Shown here: piece by piece, positions 3,357 through 55,207 of the stretch | Position numbering within the stretch: position 1 is the stretch's first letter | Layout of the letters: each line of letters starts with the position of its first letter | Source: a virus | Virus record (IMG/VR): IMGVR_UViG_3300030419_002087 | Location: 54,935 to 118,934 of that record | Strand: one strand, 5' to 3' | DNA: 64,000 nt | Program-made: the position numbers and the translations under genes | Notes under the pieces: generated by a model | The model's input: only the letters and a program-made list of their open reading frames with translations | The model's database searches: none | What the model was told of the DNA's origin: nothing

Positions 3357-4964
3357 ATGCCCGCAATTATTAGTGATCAATTTAGGATCTTAAATGCTGC
3401 GAATTTTGTAGCTGGTGTGGCGGATACCACCCAATCATATTACACTTATCTTGGTTTGCCCAATTCAGGTGATTTTGGTGCTGGTTACGGTACTACGGAT
3501 TGGAATACAAACACTCCCGCCCCCAAGGACGGATTTAGAGAATATAATGATGATTACGACACAATGATCGCACTCAAGAAATTGAGTACAGGTGACGTAA
3601 AGAGAATGATTAGAAAATATTCGTGGTCTGGTGGTACAGTTTTTGAGATGTATAAGAATAATTATACTCGAAGTAACTTATCTCCACAGACTTCTTCAAC
3701 TAATCTGTATGATGCAAAATATTATATTGTAAACAGTCAATTTAAGGTTTATCTTTGTATTAACAATGGCCAAGATCCTGCTAACCCATTAGGTAAGCAG
3801 TCACTTGACGAACCAACTTTTACTGATTTAGAACCAAAGGCTGCTGGTACTTCTGGTGATGGATATCTCTGGAAGTATATGTACACCATTAATCCAAGTG
3901 ATATTGTTAAATTTGATTCTATTGACTATATTCCTGTTCCTGATAATTGGGGTGATGGAGATACAACAGATGTTAAAAATGCATCTGTTGATGGTAAAGT
4001 CGAAACAGCCTTAATTGTTAACTCTGGTGGTGGATATCAACCAATTTCTACTACATTTAATAATATTCCAATTTTAGGTGATGGTACTGGAGGTAAAGCT
4101 TCTGTTACTGTTGATGCTCAAGGTAAAGTTTCGGATGTTACTGTAACTAATGGTGGTGTTAATTATACAAGAGGTGTTATTAATTTCTTCCCAGGCGCTC
4201 CTGGCTCTGAAACTGGTGGCCCTATTGTAGGACTTTCTGCTGTTGGTGTTGGTACAACATCTGTTGCTGAATTTGAAGTTGTAATGCCTCCTCCTGGCGG
4301 TCATGGTGCTGATGTTTATCGTGAATTAGGTGCATTTAGAGTCCTATTGTATAGTAGATTTGAAAATGATGCATCAAACCCAGATTTTATTATCGGGAAT
4401 GATTTTGCAAGAATTGGAGTAGTTAAAAATCCATTAACTCCATCTGGGTCAATCTTAAATTCATCTAGAGCTAGTGCTTTAGTTGGATTGAAATTACAGA
4501 GTTTGACTCCTGGCGGAAGTGTAGTTAATACTACTTTCAAGGTTGATAGTCCTGTATATCAAACAATTGGTGTTGGTTCAACAGCAGTTGGATATGTTGC
4601 TAGTTGGGATAGTGCTACTGCTGTATTGAAAATCTATAATCCAGTTGGATTAGGTTCTACCGCCTATGGATTTAGACTTAATGATTTCACATCACAAATA
4701 GGTGTTGGTGGAAGTTATGCTGTTAATGGTCAATCAGCTGGTGGAACTCTTGGTATTGATACAAGTTTTGGAAATGTTAGTACGCCAGGCACAGCTACCA
4801 CTGTTGGTAATGCTTTAGTCCAATTAGGACAAAGTTTCGTGGAGGGTGTTGCATCACCCGAAATTAAAAAATATTCTGGGGATATGTTATACATAGATAA
4901 CAGGGCCGCGATACAACGTAGCGCTAACCAGAAAGAAGACATTAAGATCGTATTAGAGTTCTAA
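3357..4964 (+). CDS. gp8: Baseplate wedge subunit gp8
   Basis: MPAIISDQFRILNA start, VYLCINNG, DGYLWKYMYTI, C-terminal QKEDIKIVLEF typical of cyanophage gp8. Confidence 0.9.
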   Translation: MPAIISDQFRILNAANFVAGVADTTQSYYTYLGLPNSGDFGAGYGTTDWNTNTPAPKDGFREYNDDYDTMIALKKLSTGDVKRMIRKYSWSGGTVFEMYKNNYTRSNLSPQTSSTNLYDAKYYIVNSQFKVYLCINNGQDPANPLGKQSLDEPTFTDLEPKAAGTSGDGYLWKYMYTINPSDIVKFDSIDYIPVPDNWGDGDTTDVKNASVDGKVETALIVNSGGGYQPISTTFNNIPILGDGTGGKASVTVDAQGKVSDVTVTNGGVNYTRGVINFFPGAPGSETGGPIVGLSAVGVGTTSVAEFEVVMPPPGGHGADVYRELGAFRVLLYSRFENDASNPDFIIGNDFARIGVVKNPLTPSGSILNSSRASALVGLKLQSLTPGGSVVNTTFKVDSPVYQTIGVGSTAVGYVASWDSATAVLKIYNPVGLGSTAYGFRLNDFTSQIGVGGSYAVNGQSAGGTLGIDTSFGNVSTPGTATTVGNALVQLGQSFVEGVASPEIKKYSGDMLYIDNRAAIQRSANQKEDIKIVLEF

Positions 4965-34546: not shown

Positions 34547-35935
34547 ATGTTCCAATCAGAACAGTTGCAAGAGAAGTGGGCCCCTCTACTAAATCATGAA
34601 GGTCTTGGTGAAATTAAAGACCCTCATCGTAGAGCAGTTACCGCTTGCTTGCTAGAAAACCAAGAAAGATTCTTAGCTGAAGAGTCTTCATTCTCCAGAG
34701 GGCAATCCCTCATGGAACAACCAACAAACGCAGTTGGTTCAAACGGATTTACAGGGGATGCTACAGCAGCAGGCCCAACAGCAGGTTTTGACCCCGTATT
34801 GATCAGTCTAATTAGACGTTCAATGCCTAACTTGCTTGCATATGATCTATGCGGCGTTCAGCCAATGAACGGCCCAACAGGTCTTATATTCGCAATGCGT
34901 TCTCGCTACGACGGACAGGCAGGAGGAGAAGCTCTATTCGATGAGCCTAACTCAGCCTTCTCTGCTGAGCGTGAAGGTAACGACGCAACAGCAGGTTGGA
35001 CATCAACCAACGCTGGTTTCGGTACAACTGGTCAAATCGGTTCTAATCCTTCCGTACTTGGTGCTACAGACGCTAACCAAGGTCTATACTCTGTTGGTCA
35101 GGGTATGCGTAAGGATGAGGCAGAAGGTCTTGGAGAATCTGGAAATGATTTCCACGAAATGGCCTTCAGCATCGAGAAAGTAACTGTTACAGCGAAATCT
35201 CGTGCGCTAAAAGCTGAGTATTCATTAGAACTTGCTCAAGACCTCAAGGCAATCCACGGATTGAACGCTGAGTCTGAGTTAGCAAATATTCTTTCTAGTG
35301 AGATCCTCGCTGAAATAAACAGAGAAGTTATCAGAACTATCTACAAAGTTGCTGAGTCAGGTGCTCAGAACAACGTAGCAACCGCTGGTACTTTCGACTT
35401 AGACGTTGACTCCAACGGTAGATGGTCTGTTGAGAAGTTCAAAGGACTTCTATTCCAGATCGAAAGAGATGCAAACGCAGTTGCACAAAGAACTCGTCGT
35501 GGAAAGGGCAACACAATCATCACTTCTGCTGATGTTGCTTCCGCACTAACCATGGCTGGTGTACTTGACTACACCCCAGCTCTTAATGCTAACCTAAACG
35601 TTGATGACACTGGCAACACATTTGCTGGAACAATCAATGGTAAGTATCGTGTATACATCGATCCTTATTCTGCAAACGTTGCTGCAAACCATTACTACGT
35701 AGTTGGTTACAAGGGTTCTAACCCATATGATGCAGGTTTATTCTACTGCCCATATGTACCGCTCCAGATGGTACGTGCCGTCAACGACGGAACCTTCCAG
35801 CCAAAAATCGGCTTTAAGACTCGTTACGGTATGGTTGCTAACCCATTCGCTGAGGGAACTACTCAGGGACTTGGCGCTCTTACTCAGAACGCAAACCGCT
35901 ACTACAGGCGCGTTAAGGTTACAAACCTAATGTAA
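34547..35935 (+). CDS. gp23: Major capsid protein gp23
   Basis: KWAPLL, GVQPMNGPTGLIFAMR, KSRALKAEYS, FQPKIGFKTRYG. Confidence 0.98.
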   Translation: MFQSEQLQEKWAPLLNHEGLGEIKDPHRRAVTACLLENQERFLAEESSFSRGQSLMEQPTNAVGSNGFTGDATAAGPTAGFDPVLISLIRRSMPNLLAYDLCGVQPMNGPTGLIFAMRSRYDGQAGGEALFDEPNSAFSAEREGNDATAGWTSTNAGFGTTGQIGSNPSVLGATDANQGLYSVGQGMRKDEAEGLGESGNDFHEMAFSIEKVTVTAKSRALKAEYSLELAQDLKAIHGLNAESELANILSSEILAEINREVIRTIYKVAESGAQNNVATAGTFDLDVDSNGRWSVEKFKGLLFQIERDANAVAQRTRRGKGNTIITSADVASALTMAGVLDYTPALNANLNVDDTGNTFAGTINGKYRVYIDPYSANVAANHYYVVGYKGSNPYDAGLFYCPYVPLQMVRAVNDGTFQPKIGFKTRYGMVANPFAEGTTQGLGALTQNANRYYRRVKVTNLM

Positions 35936-35964: not shown

Positions 35965-35992
35965 AAGACCTCCTTCGGGGGGTCTTTTTTTT
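35965..35992 (+). terminator. Rho-independent terminator after gp23
   Basis: AAGACCTCC-TTCG-GGGGGTCTT hairpin followed by a T run. Confidence 0.9.
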
Positions 35993-35994
35993 GT

Positions 35995-36001
35995 CTAAAT
36001 A
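35995..36001 (+). promoter_or_regulatory. Late promoter variant CTAAATA driving the synthetase-like gene
   Basis: Immediately after the gp23 terminator and 20 nt before the ATG at 36022; the same variant precedes gp13. Confidence 0.55.
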
Positions 36002-36021
36002 GATTAGTTTGTCCAAAAATA

Positions 36022-36819
36022 ATGACTGCACTGATTGACCCAAAAAAGTATAGTGAGACCGTTGACCTATTGAGGTCATTTTTTTTGTCTAAAGGTTTCC
36101 TAGAGGTTCATACTCAAAACCGTTTAAGTATCCTTGCTGCATGTGAAGATCCAGAAACAGTAGCAACATACAACTACGCTGGCAATATATGGCCATTACC
36201 ACAGACAGGACAGATGTGGTTAGAATATGAATTACTTTCCAACCCCGAAGCAGAGGGGTTTTTCTGTGTCTCCACTTCATACAGAGCAGAACCAAATCCA
36301 GTTCCAGGCCGACATGAGATTATATTTCCCATGTTTGAGTTTGAAATGAAGGGAGGTGTAGAAGAACTTAAGAAGATGGAAATTGAATTATGTGAACATC
36401 TTGGATTACCATTAGATACTGAAAATATTCAGACCTATGATGATTGGGGTAATCAGTTCAATGCAAAAGAACTTGACCACGATCATGAAGATAAGATTGG
36501 TACTGGTATGATTACTGATTTCCCTGAGTTCACATCACCATTCTGGAATATGGCAAGGAATGATGATGGTACTAGTAAAAAGATTGATGTTATCCTTGGT
36601 GGTAAAGAAACAATCGGTAGTGCTGAAAGAAGTACAGACAAAAAACAGATGAGAGATACATTCTATACCATCTCGGATGGCCAGTATGCACAACTCATCA
36701 TTGATTTGTTTGGTAAGGAAAGAGTAGAAAAAGAACTAGAAGAGTTCTTAGAGTTTGATTTCTTCCCCAGAAGTGGTGGAGGTATTGGTATGCAACGTCT
36801 AATGTCAGCCCTTTCATAG
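36022..36819 (+). CDS. Class II aminoacyl-tRNA synthetase-like protein (Asp/Asn-type catalytic core, no anticodon-binding domain)
   Basis: Motif 1 LRSFFLSKGFLEVHT, LPQTGQMWLE, motif 2 SYRAEP...GRH..IFPMFEFE, ETIGSAER, motif 3 PRSGGGIGMQRL; only 265 aa, with no N-terminal OB fold. Confidence 0.85.
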   Translation: MTALIDPKKYSETVDLLRSFFLSKGFLEVHTQNRLSILAACEDPETVATYNYAGNIWPLPQTGQMWLEYELLSNPEAEGFFCVSTSYRAEPNPVPGRHEIIFPMFEFEMKGGVEELKKMEIELCEHLGLPLDTENIQTYDDWGNQFNAKELDHDHEDKIGTGMITDFPEFTSPFWNMARNDDGTSKKIDVILGGKETIGSAERSTDKKQMRDTFYTISDGQYAQLIIDLFGKERVEKELEEFLEFDFFPRSGGGIGMQRLMSALS

Positions 36820-36828
36820 GGCTTTCAA

Positions 36829-36913
36829 TGTGAGGTGGCGAAACGGTAAACGCTCTAGTCTGTTTAACTAGTGTTCCTGGCGGGACTTATAGGTTCGACT
36901 CCTATCCTCACAG
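36829..36913 (+). tRNA. Atypical tRNA, anticodon GTT (Asn), with long variable arm; CCA not encoded
   Basis: Acceptor TGTGAGG/CCTCACA+G73; D arm GCG-AAACGGTAAA-CGC; anticodon stem CTAGT/ACTAG with loop CTGTTTA; variable stem GTTCC-TGGC-GGGAC; T arm ATAGG-TTCGACT-CCTAT. Confidence 0.88.
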
Positions 36914-36961
36914 TTTTAAAACAATATTTATGGTATAATGTATTTGTCAGAGAAATACTGA

Positions 36962-37013
36962 CTGCGGTGATCCCCTTTGGTAGTTTCAGGATTAGCGGCG
37001 ATAGGAAACTACC
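36962..37013 (+). ncRNA. Putative structured RNA (H-type pseudoknot)
   Basis: CTGC+TGATCC pairs with GGATTA+GCGG, interleaved with the 9-bp GGTAGTTTC/GAAACTACC helix; GC-rich island in an AT-rich gap; TGGTATAAT at 36931-36939. Confidence 0.5.
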
Positions 37014-37045
37014 TACTAAATATAACAGGAGACCTGCTTTCTACC

Positions 37046-37213
37046 ATGCTCTGCAAAGTAAGAAAATCACTCAAAGAATATCGTGAGTGGCAATTGAAAA
37101 TGTACAATCGCTGGGAAGATACTCTGGAAGTAAGACTTGCAGGTATTAAGGCCGCGAGAGAAAAACTTGAAGAACAAATGAGTAGAGATACTACTACCGA
37201 AGATAATGGCTAA
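37046..37213 (+). CDS. Small hypothetical coiled-coil protein
   Basis: MLCKVRKSLKEYREWQLKMY...; AGGAG and CTAAATA upstream; the start at 36977 in the ORF track is unlikely. Confidence 0.65.
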   Translation: MLCKVRKSLKEYREWQLKMYNRWEDTLEVRLAGIKAAREKLEEQMSRDTTTEDNG

Positions 37214-52811: not shown

Positions 52812-53144
52812 ATGGCAATCTATAGGACAAATGAAATCCGAATTGATCTTAATGAACTTGTATCTATTCGATCTTCATTTCTTGGTGAGAAATTATCCGA
52901 AGAGGATATAGAAACTCTTGGTGATACTCTTAAATATAGTCTCACTTTTGATACAATATATGGGATGATAGATCAAGCAATCCTTGAGTATCTTGATAAG
53001 GATGAGAATCATTATGGTGAGATACAACCTGAACCTGGCCGTGAGGCTATGTTGAATGAGATTGAAAAGAATAAGAAACAATTTGAAATGGTTGATTTAG
53101 TATCACCATCATGGACAATCCAAGTACCAAGGAGGAAGAAATGA
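52812..53144 (+). CDS. Hypothetical protein (paralog B)
   Basis: MAIYRTNEIRIDLNELVS. Confidence 0.65.
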   Translation: MAIYRTNEIRIDLNELVSIRSSFLGEKLSEEDIETLGDTLKYSLTFDTIYGMIDQAILEYLDKDENHYGEIQPEPGREAMLNEIEKNKKQFEMVDLVSPSWTIQVPRRKK

Positions 53145-53689
53145 GAGAAGCATTTCTAGAACTTTTAAAGACATATGCTTTAAAAAGAGGTAAGTTCAAA
53201 TTATCATCTGGTAGGAATAGTAATCATTATATAAATTGCAAACCTGTTACCTTAAGTGGTGAAGGTCTTCGATATGTTTGCCCAATGCTTCTTCAGTGCA
53301 TCGAGGAAGGGTCTGTGGCGGTTGCCGGCATGACAATGGGTGCAGATCCCTTAGTGACTGGTGTTACTATATGTGCAGGTTTTAATAAACAAAAAATGGA
53401 TGCTCTTATAGTTCGTAAAGAACCTAAAGGTCATGGTACAGATGCATGGATTGAAGGCCCAACATTACCTAAAGGATCTGTAGTAACTGTATTAGAAGAT
53501 GTTATTACAACTGGTGGATCTTCTATTAAAGCTGCAGACAAATTGAGAGATATGGGTTATACTGTTAATCGTATAGTTTCTATAGTTAATCGTCAAGTCA
53601 ATGGAGAAGCCGATTCTGCTATGGAAGAAGCTGGATTAGAACTAATCAGTATCTACAGTATAGAGGAATTATTGCATGATTCTGAATGA
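53141..53689 (+). CDS. pyrE: Orotate phosphoribosyltransferase
   Basis: GKFKLSSG..S.HYINCK, VRKEPKGHG, PRPP motif VLEDVITTGGS; AGGAGG RBS before 53141. Confidence 0.93.
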   Translation: MREAFLELLKTYALKRGKFKLSSGRNSNHYINCKPVTLSGEGLRYVCPMLLQCIEEGSVAVAGMTMGADPLVTGVTICAGFNKQKMDALIVRKEPKGHGTDAWIEGPTLPKGSVVTVLEDVITTGGSSIKAADKLRDMGYTVNRIVSIVNRQVNGEADSAMEEAGLELISIYSIEELLHDSE

Positions 53690-54827: not shown

Positions 54828-55207
54828 TGGAACTCAAACAGTGGCTTAATTCTATCAATCTAGTTAAGAATGATTTGATGGAAGAGGATCCTGATAACAT
54901 ACGTCAGTTTTCTCCTTTTATTATAAACAAGTGCATGTCTGGTCACATAGACACGGTAATGATTGCGAATGAGATGAACCTCAATCATGGCCTTGATAAA
55001 GATATGCAATATAAATTTTATCTAAATAGTGTGAGAAAAAGGAAGAGATATTCTCCCTGGCTCCGAAAGGATAAAGTCAAGGATCTTGATGTGGTCAAAT
55101 CATACTATGGTTATAGTAATGAAAAAGCCCAACAAGCCCTCCGCATTTTATCACCAGAACAAATTGACTACATTAAATCTAAACTTGAAACTGGAGGAAA
55201 AAAATGA
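54827..55207 (+). CDS. gp62: Clamp loader small subunit gp62
   Basis: WLNSIN, PFIINKC, KRKRYSPW, YYGYSNEKA. Confidence 0.93.
   Translation: MELKQWLNSINLVKNDLMEEDPDNIRQFSPFIINKCMSGHIDTVMIANEMNLNHGLDKDMQYKFYLNSVRKRKRYSPWLRKDKVKDLDVVKSYYGYSNEKAQQALRILSPEQIDYIKSKLETGGKK

Follow-up and report, generated by a model that had tools for sequence, protein, structure and literature searches.

An asparaginyl-tRNA synthetase-like catalytic core and a chimeric tRNA(GUU) form a viral cassette with a possible link to pyrimidine synthesis

Asparaginyl-tRNA synthetase (AsnRS), about 430-550 aa long, joins a class IIb catalytic domain to an N-terminal OB domain that binds the anticodon. Class IIb cores also occur alone. 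EpmA (PoxA, GenX) is a core-only paralog of lysyl-tRNA synthetase (LysRS) that acylates EF-P and passes its activated amino acid to this non-canonical acceptor. Aminoacyl-tRNAs are used outside translation in tetrapyrrole synthesis (Glu-tRNA), by cyclodipeptide synthases and by Fem transferases. The asparagine synthetases AsnA (11as) and AS-AR (3p8t) are stand-alone cores with ATP-dependent Asp/Asn chemistry and without a tRNA-binding domain (PMC9437257). Asn-tRNA(Asn) can be formed indirectly by a non-discriminating aspartyl-tRNA synthetase (AspRS) and GatCAB, joined in a transamidosome; according to a 2023 review (PMC9976931), Asn identity depends on the anticodon and G73, GatCAB selects the pair U1-A72, and in yeast N6-threonylcarbamoyladenosine (t6A) at position 37 of tRNA-Asn acts as an antideterminant that blocks aspartylation by AspRS. 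The present analysis concerns an enzyme-tRNA cassette in a 64,000 nt stretch of viral DNA (hereafter the window; positions 54,935 to 118,934 of IMG/VR record IMGVR_UViG_3300030419_002087), the source record being a marine, T4-like cyanophage of 118,934 bases that is ~60% complete. The cassette comprises a gene for an AsnRS-like class IIb catalytic core of 265 aa (36022..36819, plus strand) and, starting nine bases past its stop, an 85 nt gene for a chimeric tRNA(GUU) (36829..36913, plus strand). The two are linked throughout most of a phage-type clade, relatives of the enzyme are fused to or adjoin pyrimidine genes, and no single textbook role accounts for every fact.

The 265 aa protein matches PF00152 (tRNA-synt_2, the class II D/K/N catalytic domain; E 3.7e-15), its residues 11-264 covering positions 26-292 of the 308 in the profile, and therefore consists of the catalytic core alone. 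The anticodon-binding OB domain PF01336 was found neither in the protein nor in the whole 118,934-base record, and longer relatives carry DHO_dh, OMPdecase or GIY-YIG domains, again without an OB domain. The class II core with motifs 1-3 and no OB domain, as read from the letters in the initial annotation, is thus borne out by profiles and predicted structure. PHROG 29758 (function unknown) is matched over its full length (E 3.1e-172, residues 1-264 on positions 1-265 of 267). The NCBIfam equivalogs asnS, aspS, lysS, AS-A and EpmA all remain far under their cut-offs, with 17 bits vs 342.6 (TIGR00457) and 18.2 vs 414 (NF003037) for asnS, 24.2 vs 389 for AS-A (NF005055), and 19.5 vs 264 (NF006828) and 12.4 vs 286.9 (TIGR00462) for EpmA.

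An AlphaFold (AF2) model from 41 diverse relatives reaches a mean confidence (pLDDT) of 96.3. Its structural ranking is taken from VIA-align (all-against-representatives); Foldseek left AspRS and AsnRS chains mixed. The top matches are AsnRS of human (8tc8, Z 26.1, root-mean-square deviation 2.2 over 242 residues), Brugia (2xti, Z 25.8) and P. horikoshii (1x54, Z 25.8), followed by yeast AspRS (Z 23.2), AS-AR (23.0), GenX/EpmA (22.9) and AsnA (19.9). The family profile gives the same order, with E-values of 1.8e-13 for AsnRS, 1.3e-10 for archaeal AspRS and 2e-5 for AS-AR. In both profile and predicted fold, the closest kin is archaeal/eukaryal AsnRS, the catalytic domain of which (8tc8/8h53, 2xti/2xgt and 1x54) fits best. 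To our knowledge, AsnA and AS-AR show no linkage with tRNA or pyr genes.

Shared with AsnRS are the arginines of motifs 2 and 3, the flipping-loop Glu and the pocket motif Q-x-x-Q-x-x-L-E. In the alignment the viral QTGQMWLE agrees with QSSQLYLE of AsnRS and not with QSPQLYKQ of AspRS; the L-E after QxxQ is presumably a feature of an Asn-type side-chain pocket. The Arg of 'SAER' is conserved across the family and is of Asp/Asn type, a Lys-type pocket having Glu in its place. E42 and R88 of the enzyme align with E279 and R322 of human AsnRS, which are described as contacting Asn-AMP at its Asn moiety and at its phosphate (PMC10402266). Judged by its pocket and modelled fold, the protein looks like an adenylate-forming enzyme that binds ATP and Asn (or a close analogue). 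Beyond the missing OB domain, it differs from AsnRS in a Pro-rich, less basic motif 2 loop, in an identity of 18-23% to solved structures, and in belonging to a viral family that is associated with pyrimidine genes or a chimeric tRNA. As to EpmA, no link to EF-P was seen.

The tRNA of the window is called as Asn/gtt by ARAGORN and matches the Rfam tRNA model with 52.3 bits (E 5e-10) and a 15 nt insert in the variable region. It possesses U1-A72, G73, a 17 nt variable arm with a 5 bp stem and the anticodon loop CUGUUUA (U33, U37), and lacks an encoded CCA; the GUU anticodon, G73 and long variable arm of the initial annotation are all present. On a covariance model of the family (R1, from 47 family tRNAs) it scores 89.4 bits. 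The same model gives 51-58 bits for tRNA-Leu, 48 for tRNA-Ser and 43 for tRNA-Asn of host Prochlorococcus, and 55-62 bits for phage-encoded tRNA-Leu genes. The D arm aligns with that of host tRNA-Leu; host tRNA-Asn is ordinary, 72 nt long, with the loop CUGUUAA. Compared in this way, the phage tRNA is a chimera on a tRNA-Leu-like body, to which D arm and long variable arm belong. Of the traits of a canonical tRNA-Asn it has GUU, G73 and U1-A72, but neither the class I body nor U33 together with a purine (t6A) at position 37.

GUU, G73 and U1-A72 are invariant in the 47 aligned members, bar one U1-G72, and the GUU anticodon is constant across 105 unique tRNAs. Within the same 105, 86 have U at position 33, 13 have C and 6 have A, so that 19 depart from U; at position 37, 93 have U, 8 have G and 4 have A. 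CCA is encoded in non-cyanophage clades and absent from cyanophage-clade genes and host tRNA-Asn. Compensatory double changes occur in 17 of 20 stem pairs (262 cells vs 73.7 shuffled and at most 45 in slid controls, 47 members); the regex parser demands pairing, so that the 100% of paired cells arises partly by construction, while double changes and slid controls are informative. The phage tRNA thus retains the marks read by AspRS/AsnRS and GatCAB and relaxes the needs of the ribosome. As GUU never varies beside an enzyme without a domain to read it, another reader is needed, e.g. host AspRS or the ribosome. The variable arm, once suggested to stand in for anticodon recognition, is an unlikely substitute, since the variable region is not constant and spans 5 to 29 nt among family tRNAs.

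For a survey of linkage, 238 viral loci were fetched and a tree was built of the 186 distinct full-length enzymes they contain. Presence of the tRNA was scored with ARAGORN, an own regex parser and the covariance model R1, the last of which recovered the tRNAs of L114, L120, L121, L130 and L141 that the first two had overlooked. The phage-type clade holds 134 distinct enzymes, of which 123 are followed by a GUU tRNA on the same strand, five are not, and six are undecidable at a contig end. Linkage in 123 of 128 decidable enzymes extends over varied genome contexts and down to ~53% protein identity to the window, the tRNA lying 3 to ~250 nt past the enzyme gene. In two cyanophage-type loci (L074, L081) an insert of ~85 nt with long inverted repeats separates enzyme stop and tRNA.

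The giant-virus-type clade (branch support 96) comprises 48 distinct enzymes, none with the tRNA, 47 without it and one undecidable. Giant-virus bins account for 30 of these 48 rows, and one unlabelled contig carries a major capsid gene of nucleocytoplasmic large DNA viruses (NCLDV) beside the enzyme. All four deep-branching enzymes, two of them from huge phages, are likewise without tRNA (0 undecidable). In the sequence available for the two huge phages and for the five exceptions of the phage-type clade, no family-type tRNA occurs elsewhere either, only tRNA-Leu and ordinary tRNA-Asn. A phage-type enzyme without GUU tRNA (L208/L209) is preceded by five ordinary tRNAs (Ser, Phe, Glu, Cys, Arg; 3470-3913). 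Phage and giant-virus clades have a near-identical consensus with all conserved positions in common and no fixed differences, so that the enzyme probably performs the same chemistry with and without tRNA. A co-inherited enzyme-tRNA pair, as first proposed from the window alone, therefore holds for phages, where homologs mostly carry the tRNA, and not for the giant-virus clade (0/47), although the conserved positions are common to both.

The nearest named relatives come from Prochlorococcus phages, at a protein identity of 88% in P-SSM7 and of 83% in P-SSM2/P-SSM5; in these phages the two genes are annotated as 'tRNA ligase' and 'tRNA-Asn'. In P-SSM7 the cassette is placed after gp23, as in the window; in P-SSM2/5 it is set among hypothetical genes, beside a lipase. 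DNA similarity to P-SSM2/5 is limited to positions 35996-36916 of the window, from the CTAAATA motif through the end of the tRNA. From these boundaries, enzyme and tRNA are taken to be a movable cassette, a single unit. In a metagenomic protein of 614 aa (P0282) a GIY-YIG/NUMOD3 homing-endonuclease module is fused ahead of the core, which hints that mobile elements move the enzyme gene. A 2010 comparison of 16 cyanomyophages lists a 'tRNA ligase' cluster (T4-GC 194) in two genomes, with sizes of 741 and 798 bp and, where the cluster is listed, no comment on function (PMC3037559); these sizes agree with the genes of P-SSM2 and P-SSM7.

The enzyme family is very abundant in the ocean. A HMMER scan of 1.84 billion representatives yields 659 clusters at E <=0.001 and 171 at <=1e-30, full-length representatives being mostly ~260-375 aa long, and at the 90% identity level all 8000 of the 8000 scored candidate clusters match the family. 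In IMG/VR at least 593 stretches encode the enzyme. Enzymes of bacterial phages and of algal giant viruses are 53-64% identical. GenBank relatives carry the annotation 'tRNA ligase', and neighbours in the ESM Atlas are viral 'tRNA ligase' clusters only. A search of 301 sampled cyanobacterial genomes (E 1e-15) gave no match to the enzyme; it had no positive control among cells and is hence no proof of absence. Two distant members (P0131, P0160) used as queries matched no viral loci, and no functional study of the family was found in the literature searched. Contigs of four marine RNA libraries from three studies cover relatives of enzyme and tRNA (sampled-word shares 0.05-0.08), and library records 16, 24 and 32 span the end of the enzyme gene together with the tRNA; such contigs show no starts, ends, strand, expression level or tRNA maturation, and DNA carry-over is possible.

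A second association of the enzyme is with pyrimidine synthesis. Among the 16 longer relatives retrieved, eight have a dihydroorotate dehydrogenase (PF01180) fused ahead of the core, and a ninth lists PF01180 as well. Of the others, one combines the core with an orotidine monophosphate (OMP) decarboxylase, and in another the core is preceded by a GIY-YIG endonuclease. The architectures of P0271, P0123, P0154, P0282 and P0284 were confirmed with hmmscan. The fusions (L162 and L224) and their nearest kin are located in giant-virus bins. On another contig (L189) the enzyme gene stands between an NCLDV capsid gene and a DHO_dh-like gene, the latter followed by a pyrE-like gene, and on L166 a PyrE-PyrF-like gene of 462 aa adjoins the enzyme. 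The window itself contains pyrE (orotate phosphoribosyltransferase, 53111..53689, plus strand), 16 kb downstream of the cassette. Among 12 large enzyme-bearing viral records, a set that leaves out most large giant-virus contigs, pyrE exceeds the cut-off in five, all of them cyanophages: the source record, P-SSM2, P-SSM5, P-SSM7 and a complete 179-kb relative. In a phage collection of 50,697 records this pyrE matches 14, six from P-SSM2/P-SSM5/P-SSM7, six from fragmentary single-virus assemblies and two distant, so the Prochlorococcus-phage isolates with this pyrE are those with the enzyme (P-SSM2, P-SSM5, P-SSM7). In four distinct contigs pyrE lies at most 1 kb from the cassette. The gene has been noted in P-SSM2 (PMC1079782), and pyrE is reported to increase with depth (PMC9983427).

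Five host-type picocyanobacterial genomes were inspected for the source of Asn-tRNA: Prochlorococcus MIT 1012, MIT 9302, SS51 and AG-347-K18, reached through the psbA of P-SSM7, and Synechococcus RCC307. AsnRS is over the cut-off in none of the five (best 121 bits vs 342.6, the matches being LysRS-/AspRS-sized genes), GatB is present in all five, and an AsnB-type asparagine synthetase is over the cut-off in three. With AsnRS in 0/5 and GatB in 5/5, these hosts form Asn-tRNA by the indirect route, and free Asn is not chargeable.

On balance, the enzyme probably works in pyrimidine synthesis and not as a routine charging enzyme. The composite reading favoured here, held tentatively as the one that accommodates all the observations, is that it works in pyrimidine (orotate) synthesis from activated Asn and that the tRNA is a carrier where host enzymes build that Asn. 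The enzyme would hold Asn activated at the alpha-carboxyl, as Asn-AMP, and turn it into a precursor of the pyrimidine ring. The likeliest product would be dihydroorotate, formally an Asn in which a carbon from CO2 connects the alpha-amine to the side-chain amide; CO2 or bicarbonate would be added to Asn-AMP or Asn-tRNA, possibly via an N-carboxyanhydride, and the ring closed onto the side-chain amide. Host PyrD and then phage PyrE would take dihydroorotate on to OMP. In phages of bacteria that make Asn only on tRNA, tRNA(GUU) would serve as the dedicated carrier: the non-discriminating host AspRS would recognise GUU and G73 and load Asp, and host GatCAB would recognise U1-A72 and amidate Asp to Asn. 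The enzyme would need the acceptor end only and would draw the activated Asn off the tRNA, a reversal of the transfer step of a synthetase, while the ribosome would make poor use of such a carrier. In giant viruses of eukaryotes free Asn would be available, and the same enzyme could do without tRNA.

In its most specific form, this proposal is a tRNA-dependent pyrimidine entry. A non-decoding tRNA(GUU) would be loaded by the host, and the AsnRS-derived enzyme would use Asn-tRNA (or Asn-AMP) and CO2 for dihydroorotate, bypassing carbamoyl-phosphate synthetase, aspartate transcarbamoylase and dihydroorotase together with their feedback control, with giant viruses using free Asn; this version is possible, if doubtful. 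It resembles tRNA-dependent metabolism in that aminoacyl-tRNA would be the activated amino-acid donor for a metabolic product, though we know of no such system with a dedicated virus-encoded tRNA, a consuming synthetase-derived core or an output in nucleotide synthesis. With the indirect Asn-tRNA(Asn) pathway the phage tRNA shares GUU, G73 and U1-A72, the marks that pathway reads; the phage differs in encoding neither AspRS nor GatCAB and in a tRNA whose body is of Leu type and whose anticodon loop is non-canonical. The favoured reading, if true, would mean an undescribed route into pyrimidine nucleotides and the first dedicated viral tRNA that acts as a carrier in metabolism instead of decoding, and viral tRNA genes and viral 'tRNA ligase' annotations would have to be read differently.

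Several points weigh against a role in pyrimidine synthesis with a carrier tRNA. We know of no enzymatic precedent for a CO2 or N-carboxyanhydride route to dihydroorotate, and class II chemistry activates the alpha-carboxyl, which is free in dihydroorotate, so that its link to ring closure is indirect. Five phage-type enzymes do without the tRNA. The AsnB-type synthetases in three of the five host genomes imply that free Asn may exist in low-light hosts, and the host evidence covers picocyanobacteria only, which bears on the cyanophages and not on the other tRNA-linked clades. The enzyme occurs without pyrD, pyrE or pyrF in a giant-virus bin that is complete (G006), and the cassette without pyrE in a cyanophage record that is 85% complete (G009). 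Finally, pyrE and cassette could co-occur only since both typify deep-water phages, pyrE being among the genes described as increasing with depth (PMC9983427).

The main rival is a private translational pair, in which a minimal AsnRS recognises the acceptor end of its own tRNA and charges it with Asn for phage protein synthesis, bypassing host AspRS and GatCAB. The AsnRS-like pocket with full adenylation machinery fits it well, as do the tight linkage of the two genes, the conservation of U1-A72, G2/C2 and G73 at the end contacted by a class II core, the lack of AsnRS in the host-type genomes (0/5) and the agreement in specificity between an Asn-type enzyme and an Asn anticodon beside it. This reading is nevertheless considered unlikely. 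It leaves unexplained the PyrD/PyrF fusions, the pyrD/E/F neighbours and the co-occurrence with pyrE; giant-virus enzymes with all conserved positions have no partner tRNA; a non-U33 in 19 and U37 in 93 of the 105 unique tRNAs are poor features for a decoding tRNA; and the pair would need free Asn, while two of the five host-type genomes have no AsnB-type synthetase over the cut-off. The orthogonal pair of the initial annotation accordingly stands as far as conserved linkage and abundant compensatory stem changes go, and falls short, as a purely translational pair, at the pyrimidine link. Were it true, the enzyme would be the smallest natural AsnRS recognising a tRNA without reading the anticodon, and the two would offer synthetic biology an orthogonal pair ready for use. 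Conversely, the enzyme might act in pyrimidine synthesis and the tRNA be a passenger. A precursor would then be made from free Asp, Asn or carbamoyl-aspartate, e.g. by an AsnA-like ATP-driven ring closure, and the tRNA would never contact the enzyme, serving as an extra host-loaded Asn decoder and/or as an RNase P processing site through which the mRNA would acquire a stable hairpin at its 3' end. The whole pyrimidine evidence applies here too, the giant-virus clade does without tRNA, a hairpin with one compensatory pair encloses the stop codon just ahead of the tRNA, and RNA-library contigs span gene end and tRNA. A GUU constant beside an Asn-type enzyme in 105 unique tRNAs would be unexpected of a passenger or processing element, though, and the loop features at positions 33 and 37 speak against a decoder optimised for translation; with a spacing between gene and tRNA of 3 to ~250 nt, a fixed 3'-end role is not general. 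This reading, too, is considered unlikely.

Two further explanations keep to the chemistry of known class IIb cores. A free asparagine synthetase of the AsnA or AS-AR kind (Asp + NH3 + ATP -> Asn) beside a tRNA-Asn would make the cassette one of asparagine supply. AsnA and AS-AR lack an anticodon domain as the viral core does (PMC9437257) and are of similar size, the viral fold closely resembles that of AS-AR (Z 23.0), and an 'asparagine synthetase' orthogroup, which may or may not be the present family, is reported in prasinoviruses (10.1101/2024.10.02.616384). The enzyme is, by contrast, nearer to true AsnRS than to AS-AR or AsnA, reaches 24 bits vs 389 on the AS-A model, and comes with pyrimidine fusions and a tight tRNA linkage that this explanation does not account for. 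The plain Asn synthetase that merely neighbours a tRNA, the alternative named at the outset, also fits the host poorly, for free Asn has no entry into translation where AsnRS is lacking (0/5), and it is very improbable. Even less credible is an aminoacyl transferase or modifier of the EpmA or GluQRS kind with the tRNA itself or a virion protein as its target. Its core-only architecture resembles that of EpmA (Z 22.9), and GluQRS, which acylates a tRNA base, is a precedent among truncated synthetases (PMC9437257); against these stand EpmA models far under cut-off (19.5 vs 264 bits), no candidate protein partner linked to the enzyme, and again the unexplained pyrimidine fusions.

The layout around the cassette agrees with that given in the initial annotation, with gp23 terminator, CTAAATA, 265 aa core, stop codon inside a hairpin and tRNA 9 nt on all found in place. 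A gp23-like open reading frame ends at 35935; the P-SSM7 gene at the syntenic spot is annotated gp23. It is followed by an intrinsic-terminator-like element (35965..35992, plus strand) made up of a hairpin (35965-35986) with a 9 bp stem and 5 G-C pairs, followed by a T run (TTTTTTGT). This putative terminator would close the gp23 transcript and mark the upstream edge of the cassette. The CTAAATA motif at 35995..36001 (plus strand), a putative late promoter of the T4 type, is where the similarity to P-SSM2/P-SSM5 starts. Across the window CTAAATA shows no enrichment (9 sites vs 19.5 expected). The small hairpin AGCCCT-TTCAT-AGGGCT (36808..36824, plus strand) encloses the TAG stop of the enzyme (36817-36819) and has the form ATCCCT...AGGGAT in P-SSM2 and P-SSM5, a difference of one compensatory pair; it may be a 3' end or processing signal between mRNA and tRNA.

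In P-SSM7 three ordinary tRNAs, Ile-UAU, Arg-UCU and Leu-UAA, are situated between gp23 and the cassette (L001 2220-2443), and the window is without them. The sole further tRNA of the source record is a tRNA-Gly(UCC) outside the window (G000:C1:4485-4555). psbA was not found in the source record at its ~60% completeness. Downstream of the cassette, a second CTAAATA at 37016 is followed by a small open reading frame (ATG 37047, end 37213) at the place of the P-SSM7 hypothetical gene PSSM7_131, and Pfam gives no match for a frame of 78 aa (36977-37210). In RNA library X3 a single contig leads from 36001 to 37027, with 1025 nt skipped and 5 other letters between; its breakpoints adjoin both CTAAATA motifs, a faint hint (one contig, depth 3.5, 24 letters on the shorter side) of a relative without the whole cassette. 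Just upstream of the second motif, an intergenic element of ~50 nt (36961-37013) forms a 9-10 bp hairpin (GGTAGTTTC...GGAAACTACC). It matches more than 45 unannotated Synechococcus phage records at an identity of 90-92%, its depth in RNA library X2 spikes to 1066, and it may be a conserved small RNA or regulatory structure.

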